64,000 bases of DNA. Origin: Pelomyxa schiedti. Lineage: Eukaryota > Protista > Evosea. The DNA is taken from the NCBI GenBank assembly GCA_020536535.1, contig JAHLWZ010000807.1, forward strand, positions 1 to 64,000, written 5' to 3'. Positions 10,345 to 53,200 of this stretch are shown here, one piece after another. Under the pieces are notes generated by a model. The model worked only from the letters and a program-made list of their open reading frames with translations. It searched no databases and was not told the origin of the DNA. Every line of letters starts with the position of its first letter. The stretch's first letter is position 1. A program made the translations under genes and the position numbers.

Positions 10345-11383
10345 AGGAGCCAGAACCCTTTCTGAATTGGGCTACCAATGCAAAGCACTAGTAATTGGGC
10401 ACTATGGCCCTGACAGACGTTTCAGTGCTACAACTGCCATTTCTGACGTTTGCCTACTTCCCTTTTCGATATTTTTCCTTATTTTTAATTTTATTCATTT
10501 GCAATAGTTTCTGCGGCGCACGTGTAACTTCACAGTTGTGGAGGAACCAAGCTCAGTCACGTGGAAAGGCACCTTGGATCGATTCCTGGCTTTACCTGTC
10601 GATAATCTGGAGTCTGCAAAGGTATGTCCTGCAAAACTCTACATTTGTCTCACAAATGGCCAAGGTGGCAAGCATTTTTTATTTTACAGGAACTGTGAAA
10701 CAAGTTGGCAACCAACAGAACTTGTTGTTGGCTGATGACAGTGCATTTTCTCCCACAGACTACATGATGCCACTTAGCAATATTGTGTCCCGTATAGCCA
10801 TGGAATCTCATTTGATCATTGCCATAGTGGATGCAGTCCAATCGGAACACGTTTGGGGGCAGTGGGTGTGGAATGTTTACTTCCAACAGCCACTCATCTT
10901 GATAGGTACCTCAAGGAGCATTTTCTTACCTCAGAGGAGCTGAACAGTTAGCACGAGAACATCTCCCAACAGGGTATTACCTGGTGTTATCGATGAATCA
11001 AGGTTGGTTTTGTTCGGTGACTGTCATACTCAACAAACAGCAGGTTATGAGGTGTCTGAGAGCAAAAGAAAGTTCACCAGTTGTTTCAGAGATGGTACTT
11101 CTTTTTTTGTTATACTGTAAGATTTATTTATGAACACAGAGCTTTTGAGTGCAACGACAGGGACACCTTTTGATGACATTGTGGATCGCGCTGTGACTCA
11201 GGTTCAGTTAGGCACAAATGGATGCCTGTGTCCTTGTGTCAATGACACTGTAGGCACCACTTTCGCCCTTTTCTGACTTGAAAAAACAAGTTCCTCGATA
11301 ACAAAGCAACTTGGAGAACGCAACTGAATGCCTTCGAGTTCACTCTTCCTGTAAACAAAAAAAGCCCCAACCAACAACCAAAA

Positions 11384-13764
11384 ATGAGAAGGGTACCAAC
11401 GGTCCCGCCGAAGGCACCGTTTTTCGTGCTAATGGGCGACGTAGGCTCCGGGAAGTCAACGTTGGTCGAAAAACTCACTGGGTTGACTGGTCTAAGCTCA
11501 CGTCAAAGCATTACGTTCACATTGGACTCCAAGGTTCAGCACCCTTTCTTTTTGTTTTTTTCCTAACCGATGTGTTTCAGGTTTTTATTGTTGACCAAGT
11601 GTGCTGCATCGCCGACACACCAGGGCTGAATTCTATGAAAGGCCGTATTGATCACGCACTGAATGTGCTTGGAGCGATGAGATTCAAACCATTGACGTGC
11701 CTGCTCATGGTTTGCTCCCTCAAGGACAGACTCGATGGTTTGGCACAGGCCGTCAGTGACCTCGTCACTCCGTTCATTGAAGAGTTTGGGAACAACATTG
11801 CGGCCATTGTGACGAAGAACGATATCGTACCTACGATCACGCCTGAGGAAATCCGCACAACACTTGGGGAGCTGGGAGTGGAGAGAGTGATGGTAACGAA
11901 CAAAACCACAACAAAGGCGGAGCTGGTTGCCTTCCTGCAAACCCTTCAGGGAATCCCTCCAATTGATGTCACTATTGCCCCTGCTCAGTTGGTTTCCTAC
12001 TTTAAACTGGCCCCTCCCAACCTGAGGATGCGAGCCGTTTACAACAAATACGTGGCGCACTATAAGAAGCTGGCTGAAACGGGCACACAACGGATGAACT
12101 CATTGCAAGGAGATGACAAACGTGATTTCGCTTTTTCGTTCAAGGCATTCATGTATGATCTCATTCCACAGTATCAGGACCAACTGAACCTGGAATTGGG
12201 AGAATGTGAGGGAAGCCTCCTTTTCTGTGGAGAGATGAAGAAAGAGTTCAAACGACAACTGTTGGAAATCAGAAATCAATGCAAGGAGGAACTCTACCTT
12301 TCCTCCAACTCACAGTTCAGGAAGTGCCCTCACTGTGGAAATGTTTGGGTACTGGTTGAAGGTTGTACAGGAAATACTGTATGTGGAAATCGGCCGCTAG
12401 CTGCTGACGTCTGGCGCCCATTCAGCGTATTTGAGTGGGACGTCAATGCCCTCTCCACTCCGGAGTACAACTGGCCAACAAGCCCTGCCACCACAAGAAC
12501 CCACGCCTGCCGATTCACGAGCGCACAGGTCGCACAGTACTTAGATCATATCAGCGCACCAGAAAAAAGACAAGCAATGATTTTCTTGAACACCCTCTTC
12601 ACAAATACAAGTCAACCAAATCAAGACAATGTCAACCAACAGATAGCTCTACTTGCAGCAGAAACGAAGAGAGAGTTGGAAAGGATGAGCCGTGAGCACA
12701 TTTCTCGGCAGGAAGAAGACTTCAGCCGGGCGTATCGCATACTCTGCCCTCCAAAGGAGGCAGAGATCTTCAGCATCAACCAGCTAAAACTTTGCTTTGA
12801 ATACACCCTTGCCCGTTTCTTTTCACACGAAACTGCAGGGCGCAGACCAGAACTCCCGAAGCCTTGTGGAAGAACCATTTCATGGAAGAACATGGCTCCT
12901 GTGCCCCCACCACCCGAGTGGACAAAACAGTTGGAACACATGGAGAGAACTGTTGATGTGCAGGACTCTACAGTTGACCTCAACCTTCACCAGCATCTCA
13001 GCAGCAAAAGCACGCCACAAGTAGCTGTTGTTGCCGACCCATGCATTACAGAAGCTTTTGACGCTCTGAAAACCATGCGAAAATGGAGCCAGAGTGACAC
13101 TTGCGTTGTGAAGGTTCGCGACATGGCTGATGCTGGCAAGTTCCTCTTCCCACTCCCTGAAAGACCAGCTACCCCTCTTACAAGTGTGCTTGCCAGCAAT
13201 CCCAAGTTCAATGACCCCACTGTGAAAAGTGTGGTGGCCAACAACAGGGAGTGGAATGGCCTCGCGGATGACGAAATTGGACTTGTTGCGTTGTTCGCAT
13301 CTGGCCTGCTTTCTGATAATCTGCACAAGGCATTGGTGTACAGAGAACCAACAGCAGACAACCTTGAAATCGCAAGTCACCTTCTTCAGGTGCTCAATAA
13401 GTGTCCAGCAAAGCCTGGGAAAGTGTACCGGGGAGTAGAACTCCACCAGGCCGCCTCACGTTACGTGCCTGGCAAGTGTGTGATTCAAGATTTTTTTTGT
13501 ACTTGCACCAGGGATTCCCGTATTGTTGAGCAGTATGCAAACACCAGTGGGTCTGTAATGGGGCCTAGGACACTTTTTGAAATTGATCAATTCTCTGGGA
13601 TTGACATCCAGTGCATGGCAGCTCATAGGCCACAAAGCACTCTCTTGACACCAAACACAGTTTTCCAGGTATTAAGTGTGGAACGCGAGAGGAAACTGGA
13701 CAAAATACACCTAAAAGAGGTTCATGGAGATGATCTTCTACTCATCATGGAGCACTCCACCTAG
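11384..13764 (+). CDS. Paralog C of the GIMAP/IRG-like GTPase family with a C-terminal ART-like domain. Exon 1 is 11384-11533, the intron is 11534-11580 (GTTCAG..CAG) and exon 2 is 11581-13764.
   Basis: G1 is 'FFVLMGDVGSGKSTLVEKLTG', G3 is 'IADTPGLNS' and G4 is 'IVTKNDI'. 'CPHCGNVWVLVEG..VCGN' follows. The C-terminus has 'KVYRGVEL' (R-motif-like), 'FFCTCTRDS' and 'PQSTLLTPNTVFQV'. Confidence 0.65.
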
Positions 13765-14019: not shown

Positions 14020-16491
14020 TCAGGACTTCTTTTTGGTTGTTGACGGGAATGTTACGAGCTGTTGAGTTTCAATATCCCCTTTCTTGCATTTCCTGAGTCT
14101 CGTGATTACACACAAGATCAGAAGGATGAGAGTGATAGTTAGTAGAAGTGGTGCATAAAGCCTTCCTGGGGAGTGTGTTCGGGGAGCTGGAACAGAGGCA
14201 AGAGTAAGTGCTGCAACAGCTACTGTGCGAGTGATAGCTGTGTGGTAGTTTTTATCTATTGAACTTGTGGTATCTTTGTTGTCATGATAGCCGGCCCTCC
14301 GGAAGTTATATTCGGCATTGAAGTGCTCGTTCACTAGCACAACCTAAATATGGAGTGAGATGGGGTTACAGCAAAGGGTACTTATACTGGGTAACCAGCT
14401 AAGGCCACAGTTATGCCATCGGTGTTGTAAAGAAAACTTGTGGAGTCCCACCTGTCTGGGGAGATTACCTTCAGATTTGGAGCTTCTTGTTGTGCTGCAG
14501 CCATAAGAATTTTAGCTATGTAAGAAGATTGCCTTGTGTCACTTGGGTTGATCTTGTTTGCGTGAGTACGATAGAAAAAATTAGTGTGGTTACCTGAAAC
14601 GTGTTGTCACTGTTGAACCCAATCATATCCAAAACTATAAATGCTGTAGCATCGCGCCTCATTTCTAAAAGTTTACTAACAAGAAATCTTGCCCCAAGAT
14701 CATCAGCAGGAAATTCCTTTTATTGTGCACTGTCACTCACTACAAGGAAATGGAAGGAATAAAACCTCTCCCACGAGGTGAGCAAGCCAAATATCCCTCT
14801 GAAGAGAACTGACATCTTTCAATACTTGAGCTATGATCATAAGGGCTGCCGTTCCAGAGGCGTCATCATCAGCACCAAGAGACGCAATCAGAGTTTTATT
14901 GGTGGAATACACATCTTCACGCCATGCGACATCAAAGTGATCAGCAATGATAATGGGATACTTCCCGGAATTACTATTTCGACCAGGAATAACCGCCACA
15001 AGGTTTTTGAACGCTTTTCCTTGCCAACTGACTTTTTGCGTCCAAGTTTGCAGTCCCATGCTGGTATAGTATTCGGAGAGGTAGGTGACCACTTCCTGCA
15101 ATTTTGATTCTTCTGCTAAGTTTGAACACTGGCGATGATTTAAGTACAGCATAGGGTGCCTTTCAACAGGTACTTCTCCTGCTTGCTGTTGTGTGAGATA
15201 ATGTAGCTCTTCTGTGAAAGTGCTTGGGAAAGAAATGGTTCGCACGTGCGGTGTATCTTGAAGACTATGCGCTTCTCTCATTGCCTTAGTATTCACCCAG
15301 TTCCATTCCTTGGGCCACTCAACAATTCCATCACATACGTGGAGGAGAAAAGAAGTACTCTCTCCACGTACACGTGGGGGTTGCGGAAGATAGATACAAG
15401 CCCGCTGGTTGAGTTTTGGGGTCACGGAGTACAAATTGGACATCTCCAGAGGCAGCCAGGAAGATCGCCCGGGAAGTGGTACTAAAGTAGAATTGTCCAC
15501 CCATAGACAGTCACCAAAAAAAGGCTTATTAAACCAGAACCACTCAGATGGGGGGCCTAAAACAAGATAAAAAAACATGGATCAAAAAGAAGAATAATGT
15601 ACCTTGGAAGATACACTGCGAACCATAAGTCTCAGAAGGACGGTATAACTCTGCAAATAATGGCTGTGTTTTTTCGTAAGAAGAGGGAAAGAAGGCCCAA
15701 TGGAAATTGCCCTCGCTAAATGATGGAGTACTTGAACGTTTGGATTTCTTCCACCTAGCAATTGCCCAGGTAATTTGGCCAAAGTCATTTTGCACAGGCC
15801 AAGCCTCCACATCAATACACTCAGGGATTTCTGGTTCTATCGGATTGAGCAATATTTTGTGGCTTTTTTGTTTTTTTTTTGTGGTTGGTGTTTTATTTTT
15901 GCTCCATTATCTTTCTAATTTTTGCGCACTTCCAATTGCCGTAGTCTGTGATTCGTTGTTGTTAACAAATAGCATGTCCCATAATCCTCTAAAGTGCGCT
16001 TCACCCAACGCCTTCGCAAAATCCGGCAGGTCAATCCCGCCCCTCGCGCACCCATAACACTCAAACGACGACTCGCACCTCCCAACATCCCCCTCCATCA
16101 CTTTCTCAGTCTCCGTCTCCGTCCCTGCAACCCCAGTCCCAGTCCCAACCCCACTGGCCAACTCCCACATGCTACCACACAGATACAGTGCCGTCCTCTG
16201 TTCCGAGAAGGCATAGTACGTGCCTATCGGCTTGGTCTCGAACACGTGTGCACTCAGAGGTTGCTGCGCCTGTCGTACGGCGTCTCCCTGCAGATCCGAC
16301 GCTGGCCCAACTGCAGTTGCAGTAGATATGAATGAGACTGAGACTGAGGCCAGCAGCGCCCAGTAGCAGTTGCACCCACAAAGTACAACGAAGACCGGGT
16401 GCACGTGCATCGAAAAAAATGGCTGTTTTTCGGATAGAATTTCCAAGAAAGCGCCAAAATCGTGTGATGTAAGAAGGGGTTGTCTTGACAA
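14020..16491 (-). CDS. M28-family zinc metallopeptidase. It is a multi-exon gene with an N-terminal signal peptide and a probable C-terminal transmembrane segment.
   Basis: The minus-strand exons encode 'IIADHFDV', 'GADDDASGTAALMIIAQVL', 'HLVGEE' and 'ATAFIVLDMIG', which are M28 hallmark blocks. The N-terminus 'MHVHPVFVVLCGCNCYWALLASVSVSF' is signal-peptide-like. The 14020-14340 exon ends with the hydrophobic 'LLLTITLILLILCVI'. Confidence 0.5.
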
Positions 16492-24405: not shown

Positions 24406-25682
24406 ATGGGGAACAGCAACACTTCCTCACCGGGGGAAATCGTCAGTCCCCAGCCCGAGGACCACGAGCACAACGATGGACCCGACGACGATATGTTGCG
24501 TCCCACAAGAGGAGGGCGGCCGGATTTCACTACTGTGGTTGTGGACAATGGCACCCACACGATCAAGGCCGGGTTTGCCGGGCACAACTCCCCACGGGGT
24601 ATGTTTCGCCCTATCATTATGGGAGCGAGCTCATCTGGTGACCTGCGAGGTATTTCTTCTGTTTCCCAGCTGTAACTTTGGTCTTTGGTTTTTCCCCGCA
24701 TACTTGATAGGTTTTAACCTTTTTTTTTTAAATAGTTGGTGACGAGGTTCCTGTAAAGTGCACCTCTGCTAGGTGTCCTATGGAGAATGGTGTGGTAACG
24801 AACTGGGAGGATATGGCTGTGGTGTGGGAGCACATGTACAACAAGGAACTTAGGGTTTCGCCATCAGACCATCCACTGTTGATGGGTGAACCTGCTCTGA
24901 ATCCACCCAAAAACAGGGAGAAAATGGTAGAACTTGTGTTTGAAAAGCTCCATGTGCAGGAATTTTATGCAGCAAATGCGCAGCTTCTGGCTTTGTTTGA
25001 CTCAGGGAGGAAAACTGGAATTGTTGTTGACTGTGGATTCCAAAGCTCCCGTGCTGTTCCCTGTTTTGAGGGTTCCTACCTACCTCATACAGTAGGAAGG
25101 TTGGACATTGGCGGCAAGCACATATCTCAGCTCATGGAAAGAGCTCTGTCAGTTACGCCGGAGATTGCCTCTGATGTTGTAAATCAAACAGGTTACGTTG
25201 CACTGAATTTTGAGGAGGAATCAGCAAAGGCTGCAGAAGACCAGTCCTTGTACAAGACATATGAACTGCCTGATGGACAAGTCATCACAGTTAAGAGGGA
25301 TCGGTTTCACTGCCCCGAGGCACTTTTCCAGCCCTGTCTTGCTGATGCACCAGCAACATATGAGAAATGTGGAATCCACACCACCTGCTTCAATGCCATC
25401 ATGATGTGTGATCCCAGCATCCGGTTAGAGCTGTACAACAGCATTGTGCTCAGTGGAGGAGCTTCAATGCTTTCAGGACTGGCAGATAGGCTGACGGCGG
25501 GGGTTGCTTCCTATGCCCCTACAGCAGCCCGTGTGAAGGTGGTAGCACCACCAGAGAGGAAATATGCAGTGTGGATTGGAGGGTGCATTATTGGCTCAAT
25601 GTCAACATTCAGCCAAATGTGGATAAGCCACTCAGAGTATGAGGAAAAAGGCGCTTCGTTGGTGCATTACAAGTGCTACTGA
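24406..25682 (+). CDS. Divergent actin/actin-related protein (Arp). Exon 1 is 24406-24649, the intron is 24650-24735 and exon 2 is 24736-25682.
   Basis: 'VVVDNGTHTIKAGFAGHNSPRGMFRPIIMG' corresponds to actin '[26 protein letters not shown]'. 'VGDEVPVKC..MENGVVTNWEDMAVVWEHMYNKELRVSPSDHPLLMGEPALNPPKNREKMVELVFEKL' and 'TGIVVDCGFQSS..' follow. Confidence 0.7.
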
Positions 25683-26066: not shown

Positions 26067-29000
26067 ATGAGCGGACGCGGACGCGGACGTGGACGTGGCG
26101 GCCGAGCAGGATCTCGTGGCGGGCGTGGCGGGCGCGGTGGGGCATCGTCCTCACGCGGGGGGTCGCGCGGTGCATCGCGTGGCGGGTCGAGGGGCGGTTT
26201 TGGCCCTCGTGGTGGAAGAGGTTTGTTTTGTTTCGTTCTGTTTCGTTTTTTTTCTTTTTCCCCCCTAGAAACTACTTGCTCACTCGTGTTTAACGTGTAG
26301 GGGGTGGTCCTGGTGGCGACCCTTTCTCTGGTCTCCCTGGTTTCGATGCGGCAAACCAATTGCAAAAGCTCAAGGATGTTGCTGTGTTCTCCAAGCTTTC
26401 TCCTAAAGAGCTTCGTGTAACAAAGAACGCGCTCCTTAATGTTGTATCAGCCTCTCTTGTCCGGGAGGTAATACTTTAAGGGTTTTTTTTTTGTTTTTTA
26501 ACTTTCTTTTTCCAGCCCAAATTTGATTCCCCTACCTCTGCAACTGTAAAGATAAATATCTTGGTTACACAGATTGCTTTTTACGATCCCGAGTTCATTT
26601 TGAAAGTTGCCCTTTACATGCGAACAGAACTCAATATTCGTTCCACCTCAAATTATGTGGTTTCCTTGGCTAGCAACATCAGACATGTAGGACCAAAGTT
26701 CGCTTTTTGCAAAATAATAAGCTGTTTAGTGTTCGCCCTTCCTTCGCAAATACTGCAAGGCCACAATCAGGCTACCCTCTGATTGGCTTGACATCGCTTC
26801 TACCTACCAGTGCCTCCCAGACAAGACTTTACGTGGGAATGGTTGGTTCCCCAATATCTTTTTGAGGTATTAAACCGCTGCAGCCCTTCCAACGGCTCTA
26901 CGAAAGGCCCTGGTGGATAAGTTCCCTGATTTTGATGTTTATCAACTTGGAAAATACAACAAAGAGAATTCCCTCAAGCGCAAGAAGAAGAAGCTCCGCT
27001 TAAAAGCCGAAAAGGAACCCACCAAGGCTGTATTCCAAGCTGGTATATTTTTCTTAATTTCAGGTTGGAAACTAAACTCTACACAGGTAAACCTCCTGTG
27101 ACGATTAAGCAACTTGTCCGACAGCTCCACATCTCTGAGCCTCCTTATCATGTTATGTGTATTTTGGGTAAGAAGTACCCAACAACAGAAGAAGAGTTCA
27201 AGAGGAATAGATTACCAGGCGAGTTCCAACCCAAACTTGCGGGAACTCGCATGAAATTCCCCGTACCAGAAACCTGGGAAACTCTGCTGTCTCAAAAAGG
27301 CAATAGGGTACAAATTCCAACAGACTAATGCGTATGAGTAACTTTTATTCAGTCCTCAACTTGGGAGGAGCTAATCGAGCACAAGAAGCTTCCGTTCATG
27401 GCAATGCTTCGAAACCTCCGCAATCTAATCTTCACTGGCGTTCACCCACGATACCACAAGTAAGTTAAAGCTTGAAACAAGAGAAACTAATTCCTTTACC
27501 AGGTGGGTAATGAACAAGCTTACTAATGAAGGGACAATTGCTAATAGCAAGCAATTCCCTTTCCGATTCTTCAGTGCTTATGAAGTCATTCCCAAAGATC
27601 TTAATGACTTTAATGAACAGCTGGATAAAATGAACAATCCTAAGAAAGCTGCTGCTAAGGATGGCGATGCAACTAAAATTCGAAGGAAGAAGAAAAACCC
27701 CATCGTCCCCACACACAGACCACAAGATGACCTCTTCGAGAAATACAGAGCTGCCCTCGACACAGCTGTGAAACATGCTACTACCCACAACGTAAAGCCC
27801 ATCCGGGGAAGCACGGTTGTTTTTTGTGACGGCAGTTCAGCGATGAGGGTATGCTTCTCCTTGTGGTTACATCAAATCCTAATTTAAACTATAGGAGGCA
27901 CAAAACCAGTGCGGAGTTGGCAAGTTCAATCAATTGAACCAATTGGGTATCCTCCTTGGCCTTATGTGCAAGTATGTTTGCGAAGACTGCGACTTCCGTA
28001 TCTTTGGTGGTGAAGTTGACGGTTCCCGCCACCGAAGCGTCACGTTGATGGAAGGAACAATTCTAGAAAACATGCGTATCGTCGAGGAATCCAGCAAAGC
28101 TTTTGAAAATGGTGCTGCACAATTCCCATTCGACTACTTTGAAGACCTCATCAAGAGGAAGGAAATAATCGACAATTTCATTGTCTTGTCTCACCACCTA
28201 ATTCTGCCAACCGAAGAAGGAAGTGGGCCAAATACCATCCCCAGCATTCTTCACAAATACCGGCAAGAAGTCAACCCAAGAATGCTATTCGTGAGTGTAG
28301 ATCTAAGTGGAAGAGGAAGCAATATCAGCCAGGGTGATGATGAACACCCCAATGATATCCTTGTCAGTGGTTTCTCGGATGCTATCCTGAGGTTCATAGC
28401 CGAAAGAGGTGATACCAACCAACTGCAGTACGTGGAGCACATTGACATTGCACACAACTTGGTTAAGAAATCTACTGTTGAGGCTGTTGTTTCTCCACTT
28501 TATGCACCCGAGCCCCCCAAAAACCCACTTGCAGCTCTAGAGGCTCCCAAGATTGAGGAGAAGGCTGAGCTGCCGGCTCCTATGAAGATTTTCACCACTG
28601 AAACGAAGTGGCGAACTTGCAGGGTTTTCATCTCTTCCACCTTCCTTGATATGCACGGAGAACGTGATATGCTCACACGGAAGGTTTTCCCAGAATTGAG
28701 GGACAGATGTATGTTTAGCATTGAATTTTCTGCAATCTCACTCATTTCCAGGCGCCAAGAGGCATATTCACCTTTATGAAGTAGATCTTCGGTGGGGTGT
28801 AACCGAGCACGAGACACAACAAGACAAAGGACTTGAACTGTGCTTGGATGAAGTCCAAAACTGTTCCCCGTTCTTTATTGGCTTGGTTGGCAACCGGTAC
28901 GGCTGGGTCCCCAACGAGTACACAGTCCCCGACCACGAGCGCTTTGATTGGGTCAAGTCATACCCGGTAGGCCGAAGTGTTACCGAGCTGGAAATGTACA

Positions 29001-32000
29001 GTGGAGCCATCAAGGATAGCAATCCTCATGCTTTCTTCTATTTCCGAAATCCTGCCCTCGTTTCTGAGATCCCTCAGTGAGTTACCCGCTTTCCTTTTCT
29101 GCTTCTTTAACGTCCCTCAGGGAACACCAGCGTGCCTTCGCCTCCGAATCACCTGAAGCAGAACACCGGATTAATGAACTCAAATCGATGATTCGTTCTG
29201 CTACAAACAATGTGGTTACATACAATGCCTCTTGGAGGGGTATTGTCGATGGCAAGCCTATGACGGGAAATCTTGCTGCACTGTGCAAAAGAATTACAGA
29301 AGACTTGTGGAAAAACATTACTGCGGTATTTTCTTTTTCATGAGTTTATTGAATATGACTTTTCACAGGTTTTCCCGGAGGAATCCGCTGAAGAGTGTGA
29401 CGCTCTTGATATTGAGCAGGCTTATCACGATGCCTTCGCTGAAGACAGACGGAAGTTGTTCGTTGGAAGAAAAGACGTGTTGACTGAATTGACCAAATGG
29501 TGCGATGAACCAGCTGCTGGCACTATTATTCTCACTGGGCCTCCTGGCTGTGGAAAATCTTCCATAGTTTCCGTCTTCGCCAAGCAATACCAGGTTTCAA
29601 CCAATCAACTTTCCAACCATTCTAACATACTTCAGGCCAGAAAACAGAAAGTTGTGGTACTTCCGTTCTTTGTTGGAGCTTCCCCAGGCTCCACTGACAT
29701 ACGACGCGTTCTCAAGAGTTTGTGCATGCATCTTGCAAAACGATTTGGAATTACAGATCCAATTCCAGAAGATTACAAATCTCTTCAGAAGGTAAGATAT
29801 TAGACATATTGGTTTTGAATATTAACACGGTTTTCCAGACCTTTGCGCGCTTCCTTGAGCAGGCGTCTTACATTGCTCGCCTCGTTCTCATTTTGGATGG
29901 TGTAGACCAATTGGACAAGACCAACCGCGCTCACTCCTTGGATTGGCTCCCTCTTGTCCCTCCAGCCAAAGTGATTTTAACTGCTGCTGAAGGCCCAGTA
30001 CTCAAAGCGTTGTCCCAGAGGACCTCTGCTCCAACCAACACTAATACCCTCCTGGCTCCAAAACTTGGTCCCATGCTCGGAAATACTCGTGAAATCGCGG
30101 TTGGGTCTCTCCCAATTCAAGACGCCAAGCAAGTTGTTCAAGGAGTTCTTGCCGAGTATCACAAAAAGTTGGAAGATGGCCCAATGAACGATCAGCTTCG
30201 CGTGTTGCTGAAGAAAGGCGATGCTGGCCGTCCTCTGTACTTGACTGTTGCCTGTGAGGAACTGCGAGTCTTTGGAGTTTTTGAACAGCTCACTGATAAG
30301 ATTAAGTCTCTTCCACCTTCCCTGCTCAAGTTGTACGACGAAGTTCTGGCACGTCTGGAGCTTGATCACGGGCATGCACTCGTTCCTCAAGCGTTATCTA
30401 TGTTGGCCTGCTCTCGTGGTGGACTGAGGGAAGACGAACTTTTGTGCACACTGAAACGAAACAATGACGAGGAAGCCCTTCCACGTGCAGTCTGGGCACC
30501 ATTGCGCCACGCCTTGAGGGTATTCGTGCGTGGTGATGGTGAAGAAACACTGGACTTTGTGCACGCACAATTTAAGACCGCTGTGGAGAAGAAATACCTC
30601 AATCCAGTGAAGCTTCATGGAATTCATTGCGCCCTTGCAGCTTACTTCATGGACAAGGTAGTTGTGAACAATTCTTCACTGTCTCTAACTGTTCCTCAGG
30701 CTGATCCCAAGCACAATGGAACATATCAGGGTGCGTCCCTGCGTGGTGTGTCCGAACTTGCGTACCATCTGACAATGGCGCAAATGTGGCCACAACTTAC
30801 TAATGTGCTCACATCACTTCATTACATTGAGAAGAAGTGCACCATGGGACTAGCTAGCGACCTTCTTGCCGATTACACATCAGCTGTTTTAATGGGTACT
30901 GAAGGCAGATCAAAGGAGTGGGCTGGCATGGATTTAGTGAAGCAGTTCTATAACTTCGTGTCGAACTCTATCCATGTCCTTTCGGCTCTCCCCCATCTCA
31001 CCTTCCAGCAAGTATGTTTTCGTTGGCTATGTGTTTCCTTATAGTTATTGTGCCTTTAGGCAGCAAATCAACCCGACGTATCTGCTGTTGCCAAGGCGGC
31101 TAAGCAGTTATGGGACGATCATTTGGAAAAGAGAGCTTGGATCAAGTGGGTCAACAAGCCCCAAGTTCTTGATCTATGCCGCTTGACTGTTTCTGCTATG
31201 ACCGACGGTGTTACAAGCACTGCTTTCTCTGCGGATGGGCAGCTCATTGTCTGTGCTTCTAGAGACTGTACTCTGAAAGTGTTTGAGGTGGCAACCGGAC
31301 GTGAACTGGCCACCCTCAAGTCACACTCAAGCCCAGTTATCGACTGCTGTTTCTCACCAGACGGAAAGTTCATTGCCTCTGCAGCTTGGGATAACACAGC
31401 TAAGGTTGTCTAACGTCCTGTCAAATTAGAACCTAACACTACCAGATCTGGGACACAACCAACTTCATCGTGGCACAAACGTTGACTGGTCACAATGAGC
31501 GGTTGTCTGCTGTTTGCTTCACTTCCGATAGTTCCAAGTATGTCCTTTTTTTTTTTTTTTTCTCTAACTTGGGTTCAGGGTTGTCACTGCAGCGTGGGAC
31601 AACACCATCCGTGTCTGGGATGCCACCATGGGATCCTTCCTCTTTGAACTGAAGGGACACAAAAGACCCATCAACTCATTGTCCCTTGTTCCAAATGGAA
31701 ATATGATTACCTCAGGTTCGTACTATTTCCACGATTAAAGTTGTAACAATTACACAGGATCTTGGGATGGTGAATTAATCGTGTGGAACTTGGATACAAA
31801 GGAAATGTTTAAGAAGCTCAAGGGACACGAGAAGTCCATCAAAACTTGCTCTTTCCATCCAAATGCCCGACAATTGATTTGCAGTTCCAAGGACGGAGCC
31901 ATTATGCTGTGGGACGCCCAAAGTGAAAAGAGAGTTGCACAGATTGGCTCTCACGCCCTCCCTACAAATTGCAGTGTTTACAGTGACATTGGAGATTATG

Positions 32001-34213
32001 TAGCAAGTGCTAGTGACGACGGCAGTGTGAAGGTGTGGGATGCTACCTTGGGTAAGGAGACCGCTACCGTGAAGCTTGAGGACAATAACATTGGTGCTAT
32101 GGCGCTTAGCCCGGATGAGCGATATTTGGCTGCTGCGCACTCTGATACAACCATTCAGGTTATTTCTCCTTGTTTGGTTGGTGAACTCACTCCGTTTTCA
32201 GATCTGGGACTTGACACTACTGAAGTCAGTCCGTACGCTGCGAAAACACACCCAGGGGGTTACTAGCCTGGGCTACAGACCTGACGGCCGCTTCATTTGC
32301 TGCGCCTCGGTCGACGCAACAATGAGTGTGTGGGATACTAAGTCTTGGGAATGTGTGCGTGTCTTGACTGAGCACACTGCCCCAGTCAACTGTGTCAGTT
32401 TTTCGCCAAATACACCCAGAATGGTGTCGGCTAGCGACGACTTCTCGTAAGCAGCACAGAACTCTACAAGTGATCTAACCTTTATTTAGATTGATCATGT
32501 GGGATACGAACACATGGAAGCCTGTAGCCACTCTCAAAGGACACACTGCAGTGGTGAAGTGCTGTGCCTATTCCCCTGATGGAAAACACATCGTCTCGAT
32601 TGCTCGGTATGAGAGCTCAAACATTCTTTCCTCCTTACTTCTTGCAGTGATGGCACAATCCGTGTCTGGCACGTTGAATCTGGGAAGTTGCTCCACACCA
32701 TGTCTGGCCACCTTGATTGGATCAACTACTGCGCTTGGTCTCCTGACTCCAAGAAGGTGGTGACTGGTGCTTGGGATTTCAACTGCAAAGTCTGGAGTAT
32801 GAAGAAAGGAAGAGAAGTAAAGGCTATGCAAGGCCACGGAGGATCAGTGGAGGTTTGCAAGTACAGCCCAGACGGAAAGGTGATTGTGACTGGCTCCTAT
32901 GACAAGTCGATGAAGGTGTGGGATGCCGAAGGGGGGACTGAAATTACTGCACTTAATGGCCACGGTGCTCGCATTAACTGCTTCGTATTCATCCGCGGTG
33001 GAAAGAGTTTGGTGAGTGCCGCCGATGATAATACACTGAAGGTTTGGGACCTCCTTGCATCGAGAGAGGTTGCCACACTTGTTGGACACAGTGCCTCAGT
33101 CCGCAAATGCTCGTTCTCACCAAAGTCTGAATTGATTGCTACTGCCTCCGATGATGGTACCGTGAAGGTGTGGGACTGGAAGCGTCAAGCGGCAGCTACC
33201 AAGACCGCGGAATCGATGAGACACGCTGGCTCCATAACAAGCTCATGCTTCTCTTTGGAGGGTGATTTCCTTTGCACCTGTGCTTCTGATGGCTCTATAA
33301 AACTCTGGAACACCCTGGTCACAGATGAAGCCTCCCTTGGAAAATGCGTTACTCTTGCCTTGGGTGGTGGGGAGACACCCGCTGTGCGATGTTGTGTCTT
33401 TGCTAAAGGAGGTGTTCTTGCTACGGGAAATGACCGAGGCCTTATTACTCTCTGGAATACCAAGGATTTCACGGTAGTTGGTACTCTTTCAGGCCACACT
33501 AACGCTGTGCGTGGGCTCGCCTTCACTCCTGACGGGAAGCACCTTGTGTCTGTTTCTTGGGATACCCGCGCCATAATCTGGAGTGTCGCAGGCCTAAATC
33601 AAGTTCGCGAAGTAACTGCCCACTCTGAGTGGTTGGAGTGTGTTGACATCAGTCCGGACGGCAGTCTCGTCGCCACAGGTTGATCTCTTTCCCGTGCGTT
33701 ACCAATGTCCTCACAATTTTCTTGTATAGGTGGTAGGGACAACAATGTTCTCCTGTGGGAATTTGCTACTGGTGAGGTTACTGGGTACCTCAATGGCCAC
33801 ACACAATGGGTCATGTCCCTGGCCTTAGGTGGAGATCATAAGATTGCAACTGCCTCCTACGATAACACTATGAGGTTCTGGGACCTTGCTGTTGCAGGCT
33901 ATGGCTCTGTTGCCTGTGAGGGTCACAAACAAGCAGTACGTTCCCGCATTTTGGCAGGCTTTTGTTTTAACTGTATTTGCAGGTTACGTGCGTGAGGTTC
34001 GCACCAAACGGCAGGCACCTTATCACATCGTCACTTGATCACACTATCAAGCTGTGGGATAGCAGCACACCAACACCAAAGCCCGTTCTGGAGTTCATGG
34101 CAGTTTCTCCATGCACAAGTGTTTCTATCTCGCTCAAGGCACAACTCCTGGCTTGTGGTGACCTGCTTGGCAACGTTTACCTCCTCAAGTACACACGCCC
34201 CGCAAGAAGCTAA
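26067..34213 (+). CDS. TEP1: TEP1-like (telomerase/vault-associated protein 1-like) multi-exon gene. The domain order is an N-terminal RGG box, a TROVE module with a vWA/MIDAS-like motif, a NACHT P-loop NTPase, and a long WD40 repeat array.
   Basis: The RGG box is '[22 protein letters not shown]..'. The TROVE-like block is '[23 protein letters not shown]'. The MIDAS-like motif is '[11 protein letters not shown]'. The NACHT Walker A is '[22 protein letters not shown]'. At least 15 WD40 units run from about 31120 to 34210 (for example '[21 protein letters not shown]' and '[11 protein letters not shown]'). The stop is at 34211-34213. Confidence 0.6.
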
Positions 34214-34302
34214 ACTCCCCTTTTCGGAGCCTGAGAACAAAACAAGGTTGAACTGCTTGAAGCGTTTGTTTTTTTTTTTCGTCCCTTTGGGACTTTTGTT
34301 CA

Positions 34303-37300
34303 TCACAAAAAGTAGTCCCATAGCAGGAGCACGGCTTTGATCGATGGCCTTGAGGATGGGTTGCGTTCCAAGCACACCCTCACAATCTCATGTGCCAGTC
34401 GATGAAGGCGCCAGTGATGAAGGTTTTGTGTTAGTCTGCGAGGCGCTGTGGTTATGGGTGTGTTTTGTGGTTTTGGAGGAGGAATGGGGAATGGAGTGAT
34501 GCAACCCCTGAGGAGGTCCCGGCCGATAACCCACGGGCAAAGGCGGGGCAGGTGGGTGCTGTTATGGGATGTGTAGGGTGTGAAGAGGTATTTGTTGCTC
34601 CTGGTTGGTGTTTTTCCCGACGTGAGGTGGGAATATGGCTGTTTTAACGGGTACAACAGCAGGGATGCTGTGATTCCTTTGGACAATGTCAATCAACGAG
34701 CTGGGAATTAGAGAGATATGGGAGTTAGGTTTACCAAAGCCCCAGACATCGGCCTTTGTGTCAAACGTCAGTCCGGAAAGAACCTCCGGGGCACAGAAGT
34801 TCACATCCTCTGGCGAAATTGGCGTTGAAGCCGGCATACAGTAGGATCCAAATAAGAGGGTAACCGGTGTGTGGGGAGCCTTGATCTGAATTCCCTTTGA
34901 CGAAAAGAAAGGATGATTGTGAACGAACGAACCTTTGCCCAAGGACCGGGTCCAGATTCATCCAGTGACAGAACAATGATGTTATCTGTTTGCATTAAGT
35001 TTTAGTTGAAGGAGGTGTCATGTCATGCACATACCAGGCGAAATTTTGGTGTGCACATTTGGGGAGTTCGGGCCATTGTGAAGGCGATCTAATGCCTGTG
35101 CCACATCCTTCAGAATCTTCAACCTCGAACTGATTGGGAGAACTCGGTCGAGGATGGATGTAGTCCCATTCCCTTTTCTGATGAGTGAAGTCAGAAGCTC
35201 ACCCAAGCTGATGCATTGGTCAATATTGATGTATGACCCAATAATTGCCCCTATTGCAGGCGGGATGATGGGTCTTGGTGATCCTGGTATTTTTATCTCT
35301 GATTCAGAGGGAGTTGTATCCCGATGAAGTGCCACAATGTTGGGGGCAACTGATACAAGATCAACTTCACAATTTCCATTTTCACACGTCAACTTGTGTT
35401 GCCCATTTTTCACTGCATTGAGGATGTGCTCCTTGTGGAAGTAAAACAAGTTGGATGGCAATGCGGATGGTTTGTCATTGTCAGTCCACTTATCCGGTGA
35501 AGAATTGCCCTGCATCAGGCAATGGGGACAGGGGAAGAGCTCAATAACCCCAGGGAATGGTGCCCCACTTTCTTCCTCAAATCGAGACTGACTCAGATTG
35601 TAAAGAGTTCCCATAAGGGATGCCCAGAGGTGTTCTTGCTGTGGGTGTTCGTTGCACTCTGATCGCAGGTAAATCGAAACCATGTCATCTTGGAATGTAA
35701 TGAACAATAGGACTTGTTGTTCTGATCCTCCATGTGAGCAAGAGTATGAGAACGAGAGTGCATCCCTCCAACAGAACTTGATAACCCACCCACTAGAGAG
35801 AAGAGACCTTGAAATACTTGAAATGGCTTTGAAGAACAAGTCATGAGGCAACAATGGGAGTTTGATCGATCTCCCATTCGATGTGACCGGAGCAGTGAGG
35901 GAAATGTCAGCGTGAAATTGTTTTAGTATAGCAGGGGGGATAGTGTGAACCAGAGGGAGAAAGGAGCGGTGTCCCTTGACGATATGAGAGAAATTTGACA
36001 GGGTCTTGTGAACATCACCAAACTCAACCAAAAGTGACCCTAGCTCATTCATTGAGGGGTTTTTTCTGTTTTGTGGCTCTTGTCTATCCGTTATTATGAA
36101 CTTCTGGAGCTGAGCCAAAAAGGAGTAAGGTTCGACAATGACCAATTCAGGTAGATGTATTGGTACCGCGTGTGACAAGAGCCAAAAAGGATACCTGAAG
36201 TGAACAATGGTCCCAATGTCCGCCAAGAAGTTTGCACACAGCTCAATCTCCAGTGCTTTCGACATACCACACCTCCTGGCCAGCTTACAAAATTGAGTCC
36301 AGGTAAGTAAGAACCTTTTGTCCCTACGTTGTATAACTTTCTTGTTCAGTGCAATCCAAGTCTGTGGAACAGACTGGGGAATTCCATCACATATTTCACC
36401 TTGAATAAAGTCAAGGAGTGAATATACACATCTGGGTTCTTCTGCTCTATGAGATTTTTCATACTTCCATCCCTTTCCATTGCTGAGTTGCAGCAGGAAT
36501 GCAATAGGAATGTCTTCCAAAATAAAAATTCGATTCATGAGGTCGGTGACATTAGGGGCATTTGGGTCAATTCCCTCCATGTGGGTTCCAACAGGGATTA
36601 TGCTCCTCCATGCCTTGTCACCGCGGCTTCTCGCAAATGAGATTTCATTCACCCAACGATAAACTGCCATGGAGGGTTCCTTCATCTGCAACGCCTTGGA
36701 TACATCAAAAACGAGGATGATTACGGACCTGCTGAGGAGGAACCATTGGTGAAGCGGTGACAGAGAATCCCCTCCTGTGTGTTTTATGAGTATCCCATGA
36801 AGCAAAAAGGAGCCATACCAAGGTCCCAAATAGTCATATTGTGCCCAATTGTAGTGTTACGTGTATGATGCACAGCAATAGCGTGCGTGTGCTTTGTGGT
36901 AAGTGTCAGCTTTTTTGTACTCTCCATGAACTTCAAAAGTGTTGTCTTCCCAACACCAGTGTCTCCCACAATCACAAGTTTATGTGTGTTTTTCTGAATC
37001 TCGTTTTGTCTTTGGTTCACTGTGTATTCCTTTTTTTCATTTCCCAATCTCACATTGGGCATTTCAACCAACCACTTGGGAATCTTTTTAAGCTTGTTAT
37101 TGGAGAGGTTGAGCGTCCTGCACGTCAAAGGCCTCAATGATTCGGGAACAGACTCCAATTTTAAGTCAGAAAGGTCAACGTTCTCAGATTCTGTGAGAGA
37201 CCGAGAAAGGCACACAACACCAAGAGCAGCCTCGTTCCTTGTTTTCACCCAGGTCCTCAGTGCCATTGACACTGTGAAGAATGGGAACTGCGGTCGGTAG

Positions 37301-38248
37301 TCGTGCACTAGTTGCATGATCATGTGGGCTGTGATGACATCAGCACATGTGATATCTAGAATGGCCGGTATCACAGGAACCAGAACTGGTTGAGATACAG
37401 GCAGTGTAATGTCACTGAAGTGGCAAAAGGTTATTGGCGTTTGGCACAGTGGGACCTCTGGGGATTTCGCTATTACTGACAGAAGGGTGTCCAGAGTTCC
37501 CAGTTTTGGTGTCCATTTCAACATTTTGTAAGCACAAAACTAGTGTATGTCAGAGTATTTTTACAAAATAAGACCCGGACATTAAAAGCCATATGAATGG
37601 GCAGCAGTGTGTGCTTCACTCTATCTGTTTCTGGAAACTGCGCCATTGTGTCACTGCAGTCAAGAAGTAGGGTTACACATGATAGTGGAACCTTAGCAGA
37701 TGCTTCTGGGAACCTGCTTCTTGACATACCGATCAGATCATGCAGTATCCTGCTTATCGCTCCACAGGAATCCCTGTACTCACCAGTGTGAAGGATCAGC
37801 AAGACTTTTTTACCAACCCTGACAGGTTTGGTGAGTGGGACAGAGAAAGTTGATTTTTTCCCCATTGGAAACTGGGACAGCCATACCCATAGCAAAGTTT
37901 ATTTGCTATAACTGTGGAGTCACAGTCCCCAGAGCATCGGTAGAAGAAACACATCTGTTCCGGGTGATTACAGTCCCCGGGATCCCACAATGTCAGCTCG
38001 TTACACGTCTGTGCCATGCTAGACATCACGACTTTGTTGTCAGAAATCTCTTTCTCTGTATGTAGTGACCTTCCCCCCTCGGATTCGGTCTCAACAGGTC
38101 GAGCCATTCTATTGAGCTTGATCCATTTGATGTTAATGTTGATGCTTGCTTGTAGTTCGCCGGCACTGGCTACAGCAGTGAACACAGAGTCGACACAAGG
38201 CTTGGAACCAACAACGAAACACAGCCGATTCTTCAATGCACCAGCCAT
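34303..38248 (-). CDS. ROCO-family protein (LRR, Roc GTPase, COR and a C-terminal kinase-like domain), multi-exon. The kinase catalytic motifs appear degenerate.
   Basis: The LRR block is 'LNLSNNKLKKIPKWL'. The Roc P-loop is 'KLVIVGDTGVGKTTLLKFM' (about 36950). The COR-sized 603-aa exon spans 35018-36829. The kinase-like tail has 'NVHTKISPG' in the HRD position, then 'APEVLSG..DVWGFG' and 'ERNPSSRPS'. Confidence 0.5.
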
Positions 38249-50208: not shown

Positions 50209-53200
50209 TTGCATCCTCCTCCGAAAAACATACTCCTGCTCTCGGGTAAAAAAAGCATAGTTTTTCCCGCAAGTTGCATTATGGGATACAGGGGGTTGGT
50301 CTGTTGTAATTCTCTCTGTACAGTGTATCGTTTGACTTTCCAAATGAGCTTGCTGTTAGTTTTATGGGACCCTTTGGAGCCTGGAACACCACCCCCTTGT
50401 GGAAGTTCCACTTTCCTCATCAACCACCAATCTTCCAGAACCGTACACTGCATGGGGAACCGAAACACTACAACAGGTCACCTGACAAGTGAACACACAG
50501 CGAGGGTGGTTGGATATGAAGAGTTCCAAAAGGCACTGCAAAGCCGGAACGAGTTCTTCACCAGGCTTGGGCAGTCTGCCACCGTAGAAGACGTCCAAAA
50601 GTCACCCGTTAGCGTTGTTGTGGCCAAAAACTTCCGACTTGTGAGGCCAATTTCACACGGTTGCAACGGTACAACCCCCAAAAAGCACACAGAAAAAGGT
50701 TTGTGACTGACTAACAGGGATTGTGTATGAGGTGAAGTGCATTGGAGAGGGACACCCCAAGTTGTTCATGGACCAGTCCTATGTTCTCAAGGCTCCTTTC
50801 AATATCAGTTTCACCACGACAAGTGTTCAGACCGCTTTTGAGGTATCTATTATGTAAAAAAAATACATAATATAATAACTCTTATTCTTTTAAAAGAATA
50901 CAATACAACGACTACTTTCCTTTTTTTTCCCTCCCCCACTTTTGTTTCTTATGCATTCAAGAATGAGTATCTTGTATCTTCAACATTGGAGCCACACCCA
51001 AATATCAATCGATATTTCTGTCACTTCACAGACCGCATCCCACAAGAGTATTACAATCACCTCCCGCCCGTTGCCAAGGAGCTGGCATTTGACAAAGTGC
51101 AGAAGAGGATGCACGCGTGCATGTGGGTGGTCTTTGAGCATCATTCAGAGACCTTGGAGAAATTTTTAAGCAGCATCAACACCCCTATAACACCATGGCC
51201 CATTGTTCACAAGTATTCAAGGGATATTTGCGCGGCTCTGGTGCATCTTTTTTTGAATCACACTATCCACTTTGACCTCAAACTGGACAACATCGTTATA
51301 TCTTCCGTGCGTTGCCTTCCCAGACACTAACAACAATATTTACAATCCCGCACAACTTAACTTAGTCAAGATACTTACAAACAACAGAACAAAGAACAGG
51401 CAATCCTGATTGACCTTGGGTGTGCAAAAAAATTCTCAAGGACAAGAAAGGCATTTGAGATTGATACAGTGTCTCTCATTTCAATAACAGGAAATACAAG
51501 TCACAGAGCACCTGAAATCCTCAACGGCACCGCACGATACAGGCAGGACCCAGACGCCATACCAACGTGGTGCTGTGACAAGGTATTAAGTCCAGATATT
51601 TCATTTTTTTCGACTTTCACCCCCTGAAAACAGCAAGCATCATTTGAACTTGGGTGCATTCTGTTTGAACTCTCCATGTGTGGAAAACACCCTCTCCCAG
51701 GGTACCCTGGGGGTTATGGTCCAGGTGGAAAGGTCACATTTTCATTTGAGAGGGAGGAACTGTTCCCTATGAAACCGACAGATTTCCCAAAGGAGTTCTG
51801 CAACGTCGTCCGTTCGTTACTGCAGTGTGACCCTGAAAAAAGGATGCCTCTGCTGGAGGCATCGGAGGTGCTGTCCAATCTTGAATCACCATGCCCTTCT
51901 GATCTGCTCTCATTTTACACTGGTTTTGTGCCTCTATCGAATGATGCAGGTTGACTTTACAGGTTGAACTGAGTAAATTTACACTGACCCACAAAAACAC
52001 ACAAACAACAGTAATGTTGACAACCAAGGCAACATGTCAGATTCTTTGTGGTGCCACAGAAGACTCGCTTGACACCCTCCATAAAGCCCTGGAAATTGAA
52101 CCGTTGTTTTCGCCTGCTTTGCTGCTTTTGCATTATCTTCATTCTTACCAGCAGAAGTTGGACCATAGCTACGAACAAGCAATTCTCACAGCACTCACAG
52201 GCAGGATGGCCTCATTTACAACCACAGACGTGGAATTTACAAGGGCCATCATCAGCAGGCGGCACAGCGCCACACTCCCTGAATTGGTTTTGGCAGCACT
52301 ATGGACAAAACACATTTCCCACAAGGTTGACGAGTACCGCACCCTCGCAAAGTTGCTTTTGAAGAAGATACCAGAATCAGAGGGTCAGTCTCAACAGCAA
52401 TCAATGGAGTTGAATTACGTTTTCTTGAAGAAGGTTATTGCCACACGAAACGAGACGATGTTGGGTGCACTTCTGCAGTTGGAAGTGGGAAACATTGACT
52501 TTGCCCTCGCGCTTGTGGCCAGTGCATCCTTACAATTCCAATGTGAAATGATGAACTGTCCCAGTGGTGTGTGAATGTCTCTTCCTTTCTTCTCATTCAA
52601 CTATATGAAAGGGGTAGCACAACACTGTGAGTACCTTCCCGCTTTGTTGTTCCTTTATTGTCTCCGTTGTGTTATCAATGACCACTTGTCACTTCAACAA
52701 CACATACCAACTAGCCTGTCAGAGGCTTTTTCTCAGGCGGTCTCCTCCACACTAGAGTCAATGAGAGCTCTGTGCCGGCGGGTTTTGAATGACACAACTA
52801 ACGTTGGTGGGGCAGAGTTCTCTGACCTTGCCACAACAGTAGCATTGAGAGCCAATGTTGATAACCAAACATCAGCCATGATGAGTTCGGAGCAGTCATG
52901 GTCCTGCATGTACTTTGTTGCTTTGTGGAGGACTTTCTGTTCTTCCCATATTCAATGTAAAGGTGCGGCACACATCTGGGAGGAACTGAGTTCAATGACT
53001 CCAGCCTCATCTCAGCCCCACAACATGATGACTGGCAGCGTGGGTGCTTCCTCCCTCACCCGCCTTGGTCTCTGCTATGAACTTGGTGTTGGTGGTGTTC
53101 ACAAGGACTTCAACAAGGCCGTGGAACTGTACCGGAGGGCCGCTGATTCCGGCGACGCCACTGCACTCTGCGTACTTGTTGGTGTGTGTCATCACTGGAA

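Follow-up and report, generated by a model that had tools for sequence, protein, structure and literature searches.

Related systems

Vertebrate TEP1 (vault p240; human Q99973) carries TEP1_N repeats followed by a core in the order TROVE, vWA, DUF4062/NIR, NACHT, a helical domain and approximately 21 WD40 repeats. TROVE and vWA folds also make up the RNA chaperone Ro60 (Rsr), a stand-alone protein of about 540 amino acids with a complete MIDAS motif. A NIR domain with a catalytic Glu, located N-terminally to a STAND NTPase, occurs in NWD1 and NWD2 and in the bacterial NIR/DUF4062 defence proteins (Avs-NIR, Swarozyc, Vulcan, Vesta), for which the same logic as for TEP1, oligomerisation-activated depletion of NAD+, has been proposed; these proteins contain neither a TROVE/vWA module nor an RGG box. 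Human NWD1 and NWD2 had no NADase activity in vitro; for TEP1, TIR-like NADase activity in vault particles was recently demonstrated, that of the human protein depending on E1008 (10.64898/2026.05.01.722283, 10.64898/2026.09.04.749371). An amoebozoan orthologue bears on the age of this design.

Gene structure and identity

The locus described here very probably encodes the TEP1 orthologue (telomerase-associated or vault protein) of Pelomyxa schiedti (Archamoebae, Amoebozoa) as one STAND-type protein of 2365 amino acids. The gene occupies positions 26067..34213 on the + strand of the window (the whole stretch of 64,000 nucleotides that was analysed), starting with an ATG at 26067 and ending with a TAA stop codon at 34211-34213. 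The spliced model consists of 24 exons and 23 GT-AG introns, which are 41-51 bp long except for the first one (80 bp). The translation of the 24 exons was 100% identical, residue for residue, to P0001, the GenBank entry 'telomerase protein component 1 [Pelomyxa schiedti]'. The deposited P. schiedti gene models were produced by Augustus, PASA and EVM with transcript data (PMC8887013). The gene and its predicted domains are the following:

26067..34213, + strand: complete TEP1 coding region (splice model; translation equal to P0001)
26067-26220, 26301-26467, 26516-26686, 26730-26841, 26884-27042, 27087-27307, + strand: exons 1-6
27353-27459, 27503-27848, 27895-28708, 28752-29076, 29121-29325, 29369-29593, + strand: exons 7-12
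29636-29791, 29839-30657, 30700-31011, 31060-31404, 31446-31537, 31579-31715, + strand: exons 13-18
31758-32158, 32202-32446, 32490-32606, 32648-33678, 33730-33935, 33983-34213, + strand: exons 19-24
26067..26302, + strand: RGG/RG box, amino acids 1-52 (exon 1 and the first two bases of exon 2, spanning intron 1)
26405..27806, + strand: TROVE, amino acids ~87-465 (Pfam PF05731; Ro60-like helical-repeat RNA-binding module)
27807..28461, + strand: vWA-like domain, amino acids ~466-668 (predicted fold; Foldseek)
28606..29371, + strand: DUF4062/NIR, putative TIR-like NADase domain, amino acids ~717-928 (PDB 11gz_A; Pfam DUF4062)
29522..29985, + strand: NACHT P-loop NTPase core, amino acids ~979-1103 (Pfam NACHT)
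30751..31110, + strand: APAF1_C-like helical domain, amino acids ~1345-1448 (Pfam PF17908, E=1.7e-10)
31204..34210, + strand: WD40 region, amino acids ~1480-2365 (Pfam WD40 and blade periodicity)

A homologue search gave 245 matches at E<=1e-10. The full-length matches (36-75% identity, 83-100% coverage) included the TEP1 proteins of Strongylocentrotus, Lytechinus, Anneissia and Branchiostoma as well as dictyostelid proteins; the values were 38% identity and 96% coverage for S. purpuratus TEP1, and 37% and 93% for that of Branchiostoma. Amoebozoan orthologues, represented by the 'WD40 repeat-containing protein' of Dictyostelium, Heterostelium, Tieghemostelium and Cavenderia and by Mastigamoeba m51a1_g310, matched over the full length with 36-49% identity. 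The order of the core domains is the same as in vertebrate TEP1, and the P. schiedti protein is approximately 260 amino acids shorter than the human one. The TEP1-like architecture of the original prediction was thus borne out by Pfam, structure and fold matches and by full-length collinearity with named TEP1 proteins, and all sequence strings quoted in support of it were found where they had been placed. The gene is already annotated and adds no new kind of system; the finding is correct and largely ordinary. What it adds is a small, lineage-specific N-terminal variant of a known gene, which appears to be undescribed.

TROVE and vWA domains

The assignment of the TROVE domain was confirmed by a PF05731 match with E=1.2e-86 (292 bits, cut-off 23) and by the PDB TROVE chains 9kop and 9l5y, which matched the region both by sequence and by fold. 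A TROVE motif of 10 residues was located at amino acids 341-350. The AlphaFold model of amino acids 70-718 could be aligned over approximately 600 columns with the Ro60/TROVE structures 1yvp, 2i91, 9nen and 2nvo (E=7e-13 to 2e-8). Because TROVE and vWA are fused in one ORF to NIR, NACHT and WD40, and Ro60 is stand-alone, the protein is not Ro60.

The vWA domain was missed by searches with sequence profiles alone; its location directly after TROVE is supported by the predicted structure. The model of the fragment had a pLDDT of 74 overall and 80-94 in the vWA part, with an alternating beta/alpha fold at amino acids ~395-570 of the modelled fragment. In Foldseek searches the vWA part aligned with the vWA of Ro60 and, separately, with those of RGLG2, TFIIH p44 and MDN1. 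A Pfam DUF5920 match (E=6.6e-9) fell inside the same region. Of the vWA/MIDAS 'DGSSAM' claimed originally, the string itself (amino acids 473-478) and the vWA fold are present, but the MIDAS is incomplete: the MIDAS-like D473-G-S475-S-A477 (27828-27842) has Ala in the third ligand position and does not conform to the metal-coordinating DxSxS motif, and the MIDAS column was not conserved among 10 aligned orthologues.

DUF4062/NIR domain

Between vWA and NACHT the protein contains a DUF4062/NIR domain, which was missing from the original domain list. It matched the TIR-like domain of human TEP1 (PDB 11gz_A) with E=1.1e-55 and Pfam DUF4062 with E=2.7e-13 (50.3 bits, cut-off 24.7). Residues were mapped to human TEP1 using an offset of +893 against the preprints. 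The predicted catalytic Glu831 (28991-28993) corresponds to human E1008 and Arg799 (28895-28897) to human R976; both residues were invariant in 120 of the 120 orthologues examined. The residues R908 and R954 of human TEP1, which coordinate an anion in the active site, are replaced by Leu730 and Lys776 in P. schiedti, i.e. two of the three positions are not Arg. Retention of the catalytic Glu suggests that the P. schiedti NIR domain is a putative NADase, and it is this predicted TIR-like NADase domain that constitutes the true tie of the protein to immunity-type signalling.

NACHT, helical domain and WD40 repeats

The NACHT domain was recognized by Pfam with 34.1 bits (cut-off 26.7) when the spliced model was used, and scored 22.7 bits when the 42-bp intron located in this region (29594-29635) was retained. 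The NACHT class and the Walker A sequence had both been predicted correctly: GPPGCGKS, conserved with vertebrate TEP1 as are the catalytic Glu and the R976 equivalent, is at amino acids 984-991 (29537-29560). The Walker B motif is at amino acids 1069-1078 (29881-29910). Matches to NPHP3_N, AAA_16 and nSTAND1 overlapped the NACHT core. The APAF1_C-like helical domain is placed between the NTPase and the propellers.

In the WD40 region Pfam PF00400 matched 19 stretches (E=1.5e-168), and the TEP1-specific propeller family Beta-prop_TEP1_2nd was matched with E=5.6e-91. A scan for blades identified 20 'xxVWD-like' ends at a strict spacing of ~42 amino acids and a terminal blade, hence there are approximately 21 blades, and the 'at least 15' WD40 units counted originally were a conservative estimate. 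About 21 blades of 42 amino acids would fit three seven-bladed propellers.

N-terminal RGG box

In place of the TEP1_N repeats of the vertebrate protein, the P. schiedti protein carries a 52-amino acid RGG/RG box, in agreement with the original prediction. The box contains 14 R and 24 G residues, which form 8 RGG and 13 RG motifs, and its coding sequence is interrupted by intron 1 (26221-26300). TEP1_N repeats (Pfam), which are vertebrate-specific and are not needed for TEP1 membership, were not detected in the P. schiedti protein, and a Pfam search with amino acids 1-107 found zero families at E<=0.01. In the RGG-motif literature, a Tri-RGG pattern denotes at least three RGG repeats spaced closely together. 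The order RGG-x4-RGG-RGG-RGG, followed by further RGG/RG repeats, conforms to this pattern by sequence, and the box is predicted to be a disordered tract of the Tri-RGG type. The likeness to the RGG/RG proteins FUS, nucleolin, FMRP and fibrillarin is compositional and does not indicate homology. At the DNA level the tract is no simple microsatellite, because TRF found just two short arrays (25 and 20 bp) and the codons are varied, with five Arg and four Gly codons in use. In the literature library that was searched, no paper connected TEP1 with an RGG box.

Comparison of N-termini revealed RG-rich sequences in 14 orthologues. An MSG(R/I)… start followed by an RG-rich tract was seen in P0003, P0004, P0006, P0009, P0010, P0012, P0017, P0031, P0046, P0047, P0073, P0085 and P0111, and in the NJ tree the orthologues with RG-rich N-termini grouped with Archamoebae and Dictyostelia. 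None of the approximately 60 metazoan-type orthologues had such an N-terminus, and the N-termini of the invertebrate and amoebozoan orthologues inspected were unrelated to TEP1_N. Other amoebozoan TEP1 orthologues thus share the RGG box with P. schiedti: most of them are RG/RGG-rich N-terminally and start with MSG or similar. Among the amoebozoan orthologues both the length and the sequence of the tract differ widely, with 1 to 20 RG/GR dipeptides. It is nearly absent from the Mastigamoeba orthologue P0005, which has a single RGG ('MPMRGGRPGPFAGIEGF'), and absent from the Stereomyxa orthologue P0026, and is therefore dispensable in some amoebae.

Alternative explanations and possible function

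The RGG exon is part of the TEP1 gene and not, as might be feared, a separate upstream gene. The length of intron 1 (80 bp versus 41-51 bp elsewhere) and the low-complexity, GC-rich character of the tract, which is of the kind that gene predictors can mis-join, could suggest that the exon stems from another gene or was annotated wrongly, the true TEP1 start being further downstream. This is very improbable, however, in view of several observations. The upstream neighbour, an actin-family gene, closes with its own stop codon at 25682. There is no ATG in exon 2 or in intron 1, an in-frame stop codon immediately precedes exon 2, and the first internal Met (amino acid 142) is already within the conserved TROVE domain. 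The deposited gene model begins with the RGG exon, and in the Trinity de novo transcripts of the orthologues P0003 and P0017 ('ORF type: complete') the same MSGRG… start as in P. schiedti is fused to TROVE. Moreover, in P0003 and P0005, too, the RGG tract is followed by the Gly-rich segment PFxGxxGF, which exon 2 encodes in P. schiedti. It is similarly hard to believe that an NWD/NLR-like immune receptor independently gained TROVE here and that the protein is not a true TEP1 orthologue. TROVE-less DUF4062-NACHT-WD40 proteins (NWD1, NWD2, many NLR-like proteins of protists) are widespread in Amoebozoa (10.64898/2026.09.04.749371), but metazoan TEP1 proteins were collinear over 83-96% of the 1503-amino acid N-terminal query comprising TROVE, vWA, NIR and NACHT, and the matches to Beta-prop_TEP1_2nd (E=5.6e-91) and of the NIR domain to the human TEP1 structure (E=1e-55) also argue for TEP1.

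By analogy with mammalian TEP1, the Ro60-like TROVE/vWA part would bind small structured RNAs (vault RNA, telomerase RNA) and tether them in the vault particle, and the NACHT and WD40 part would serve as an autoinhibited oligomerisation switch. Homology suggests that the whole protein may act in vaults as a STAND switch that binds RNA and has an NADase as its effector; we infer this by a transfer of function from mammals that spans a very large evolutionary distance. The RGG tract, which appears to hold the position of the unrelated TEP1_N repeats of vertebrates, would, judging by what RGG boxes do in general, be a disordered extension, probably arginine-methylated, and would most likely add low-specificity RNA affinity or aid RNP assembly or localisation. 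We tentatively propose, as a rather doubtful possibility, that the box functions as a second module for RNA handling, which arose at the TEP1_N position in the Archamoebae-Dictyostelia branch of Amoebozoa and either assists the loading or retention of small RNAs at the TROVE ring or links the binding of RNA to NIR NADase activation. If this were true, amoebozoan TEP1, including that of the genetically tractable Dictyostelium, would offer a natural system in which to ask which RNA signal controls the vault NADase.

It is quite conceivable, if short of probable, that the tract does not bind RNA. It might instead be a site of protein-protein interaction, a signal regulated by arginine methylation that directs nuclear import or condensate formation, or a low-complexity extension that is close to neutral. 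In general, RGG boxes are methylated by PRMTs, bind transportin and mediate phase separation; in the amoebozoan tracts sequence and length are poorly conserved with composition alone retained, and P0005 of Mastigamoeba has one RGG and other amoebozoan-like orthologues none. Against this, the RG-rich composition was kept across Archamoebae and Dictyostelia despite their deep divergence, the heterogeneous codons do not look like a product of slippage, and the tract adjoins a fold that is proven to bind RNA, the known partners of the protein being RNAs. In this anaerobic amoeba the protein might act outside vaults, either in telomerase biology or as an RNA-sensing NADase switch free in the cytosol, which we consider improbable. 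In mammals, TEP1 occurs both in vaults and in telomerase fractions, but in mouse TEP1 knockouts vault RNA is reportedly destabilised and telomerase unaffected. The P. schiedti genome paper makes no mention of 'vault' (PMC8887013), but MVP paralogues have been reported from Dictyostelium and from the related archamoeba Mastigamoeba balamuthi (PMC12547018). The matches listed in our MVP search were all vertebrate MVPs and thus uninformative on P. schiedti, and an Rfam search of the 64,000-nucleotide window had no hit, with no vault-RNA or Y-RNA-like gene detected. All catalytic hallmarks are retained in this amoebozoan orthologue, therefore the RNA-binding/NADase/STAND design would be at least as old as the ancestor shared by amoebae and animals.

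Identity and structure of the gene

ORF scanning and reading of the DNA revealed that the following region consists of consecutive open reading-frame segments with very little sequence between them:

26067-34213, plus strand: TEP1 gene, encoding an RGG-TROVE-vWA-NIR-NACHT-WD40 protein

When the segments were joined at GT-AG junctions, a stop-free coding sequence was obtained, which begins with the ATG at 26067 and ends with the TAA at 34211-34213. The splice model, refined by comparison with homologues, consists of 24 exons and 23 introns and encodes a product of 2365 amino acids. This translation is identical, residue for residue, with P0001, the deposited protein 'telomerase protein component 1 [Pelomyxa schiedti]'. 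The genome of the archamoeba P. schiedti was annotated using Augustus, PASA and EVM together with single-cell transcriptomes (PMC8887013). All structural features tested for membership in the TEP1 family were present, with the exception of the vertebrate-only TEP1_N repeats. The locus, originally predicted to be TEP1-like, is thus a TEP1 orthologue, and it had already been annotated. The protein differs from Ro60 because its TROVE/vWA module is fused to further domains, and the presence of TROVE sets it apart from NWD-type proteins.

The exact protein was deposited and named previously, and the TEP1 family is well known. A full-text literature search combining TEP1, RGG and vault yielded no relevant publication. 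The sole undescribed element that we found appears to be the RGG-type N-terminus common to the amoebozoan orthologues.

All introns of the gene are of the GT-AG type, and their length is tightly constrained: 22 of the 23 are 41-51 bp long. The only longer one is intron 1 (80 bp), which is T-rich and contains a GTTTCGTTTT-like repeat. An exon-4 donor at 26832 was discarded in favour of the one at 26841 (homologues have 'SGNALPT'). A 22-exon version of the gene encoding 2390 amino acids does not agree with the deposited protein in three places. Two introns are exactly 42 bp long, preserve the frame and contain no stop codon, and retention of either would add 14 amino acids to an unbroken ORF:

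29594-29635, plus strand: TEP1 intron within the NACHT core, just past Walker A
30658-30699, plus strand: TEP1 intron

Both segments were treated as introns after comparison with homologues. For the second, homologues have an 11-residue string spanning the junction. With the first removed, the NACHT domain scored 34.1 bits in Pfam instead of 22.7.

Domain composition

The RGG N-terminus and the DGSSAM and GPPGCGKS strings noted in the original prediction were all found in the spliced protein. The TROVE domain, whose presence had been set beforehand as a test, was detected by Pfam at amino acids ~87-465 (E=1.2e-86). A profile built from the TROVE-vWA region of 10 orthologues and run against PDB sequences matched Ro60-like proteins of phages and bacteria in their TROVE part and no further. 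Structure prediction and Foldseek were required for the vWA domain. An AlphaFold model of amino acids 70-718, computed from a 10-sequence alignment of orthologues, had a mean pLDDT of 74, with values >85 across most of the folded core. Foldseek aligned this model with Ro60 and TROVE structures over ~590-610 columns (E 7e-13 to 2e-8), and its C-terminal alpha/beta part also matched the isolated vWA domains of RGLG2, TFIIH p44 and MDN1. These matches support, at the level of the predicted fold, the assignment of both TROVE and vWA. The vWA half of the predicted vWA/MIDAS unit therefore stood, but the MIDAS half did not: the DGSSAM segment (amino acids 473-478) offers an incomplete motif (D-G-S-S-A instead of the expected DxSxS), and its column shows no conservation in the 10-sequence alignment.

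The NIR domain (DUF4062 in Pfam) lies between vWA and NACHT. The Walker A sequence GPPGCGKS occupies amino acids 984-991, the P-loop residues are conserved, and the predicted NACHT class was confirmed with the 24-exon protein (34.1 bits, Pfam cut-off 26.7). An APAF1_C-like helical domain is C-terminal to NACHT. The WD40 region was recognized with E=1.5e-168, and the TEP1-specific propeller family with E=5.6e-91. Twenty blade ends at a strict ~42-aa spacing plus a terminal blade give ~21 blades, where at least 15 had been predicted; this number fits three propellers.

The NADase domain

According to two 2026 preprints, DUF4062 is a TIR-like NADase domain that works in anti-phage systems of bacteria as well as in human TEP1, where E1008 is needed for activity, the R908A and R976A replacements lower it, and the enzyme is active within vault particles too (10.64898/2026.05.01.722283, 10.64898/2026.09.04.749371). 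The solved human TEP1 domain (PDB 11gz_A) matched the Pelomyxa NIR region with E=1.1e-55 (residues 714-925 of the 22-exon version). With a chain-to-protein offset of +893 in this alignment, all four published residues fell on the correct amino acids. Glu831 and Arg799 of the Pelomyxa protein correspond to human E1008 and R976, and both columns were invariant in 120 of the 120 orthologues retrieved. Leu730 and Lys776 correspond to human R908 and R954, in columns that are variable across these orthologues. Judged from the alignment, the catalytic core of the domain is conserved, and by analogy with the human enzyme we infer that the Pelomyxa domain has NADase activity.

The RGG-type N-terminus

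The first 52 amino acids contain 8 RGG and 13 RG motifs. Pfam matched no family in the N-terminus, TEP1_N included, in agreement with the predicted lack of TEP1 repeats.

Ownership of the RGG exon by a separate upstream gene had been set as the second test. The actin-family gene located 5' of TEP1 has its own stop at 25682, and no in-frame ATG of the TEP1 gene precedes the one at 26067. Exon 2 has no start of its own: intron 1 contains no ATG, an in-frame stop lies just ahead of exon 2, and the next Met is residue 142, within the conserved TROVE domain. Moreover, the homologue P0003 (a Trinity transcript labelled as a complete ORF, 64% identity) begins as the Pelomyxa protein does and continues with …NPFAGIAGFD, a segment that parallels the one encoded by exon 2. 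Orthologues start alike: RG-rich N-termini were found in the homologues P0004, P0006, P0009, P0010, P0012, P0017, P0031 (Heterostelium), P0046, P0047 (Tieghemostelium), P0073, P0085 (Dictyostelium) and P0111 (Cavenderia). An upstream owner was rejected on these grounds. A recent microsatellite expansion was rejected as the source of the tract as well, since TRF found only two short arrays (20-25 bp) in its DNA and the codons are mixed, with five different ones for Arg and four for Gly.

Most of the RG-rich orthologues grouped with Pelomyxa, Mastigamoeba and the dictyostelids when a neighbour-joining tree was built from the NIR domain. The Mastigamoeba orthologue (P0005) has kept one RGG, the Stereomyxa orthologue (P0026) none. 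None of ~60 metazoan-type orthologues had an RG-rich N-terminus; Ser/Leu-rich extensions were found there instead. The RGG box is genuine and part of the TEP1 gene. As a compositional feature it is conserved in the amoebozoan TEP1 lineage, and it is no peculiarity of this locus.

The Ser/Leu-rich extensions ('…SSLL…', '…LLS…') are ~200-250 amino acids long and occur in echinoderm, mollusc and amphioxus TEP1 orthologues (P0098, P0100, P0107, P0110, P0113 and P0115-P0117). They represent a third N-terminal type, different from the RGG box of amoebozoans and from the TEP1_N repeats of vertebrates.

Possible function

By analogy with mammalian TEP1, as described in the 2026 preprints and in older studies of its RNA binding and of knockouts, the Ro60-like ring would bind small structured RNAs and anchor them in the vault, and NACHT with WD40 would form an APAF-1-like autoinhibited switch, whose oligomerization would activate the NIR NADase. 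The immune-like, RNA-linked role proposed originally agrees with current thinking, but its concrete basis is the NADase domain, which had been overlooked.

Vaults are plausible in the Pelomyxa lineage because paralogues of the major vault protein (MVP) have been reported from the archamoeba Mastigamoeba balamuthi and from Dictyostelium (PMC12547018). When human MVP was used as query (100% identical to a primate MVP cluster), the best 120 matches listed were all vertebrate. At the Rfam gathering threshold the whole window gave no match to any RNA family, vault, Y and telomerase RNAs included. Given the general properties of such tracts, the RGG box could provide extra RNA affinity, methylation-regulated localization or condensate formation. 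We argue that its role would be auxiliary, because the sequence of the tract is poorly conserved and occasionally lost.

Other genes in the window

TEP1 is flanked by two genes:

24780-25682, plus strand: actin-family gene directly upstream of TEP1 (last large exon, Pfam Actin E=4.8e-91)
~34300-37524, minus strand: large gene convergent with the 3' end of TEP1

The stop codon of the actin-family gene is separated by 384 bp from the TEP1 ATG. Within the minus-strand gene a 603-aa ORF (35018-36829) gave a weak COR-A (Roc-COR) match (27.6 bits, under the cut-off of 35.3). This match and more exon-like ORFs down to ~34303 suggest that the gene encodes a ROCO-type protein, its 3' end being ~100-300 bp from the TEP1 stop.

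Three tandem paralogous long ORFs span 5775-13764:

5775-7958, plus strand: ORF 1
8161-10344, plus strand: ORF 2
11311-13764, plus strand: ORF 3

ORF 1 and ORF 2 are 72% identical in amino acid sequence, but solely across an N-terminal segment of 252 amino acids; between ORF 1 and ORF 3 the identity is 56% over ~725 amino acids. None of the three matched Pfam at E<=1e-5, and they look like a lineage-specific expanded family. Two further ORFs had Pfam matches:

14733-15578, minus strand: ORF with a peptidase M28 fragment (E=5e-7)
52575-53585, plus strand: Sel1-repeat ORF (E=3e-31)
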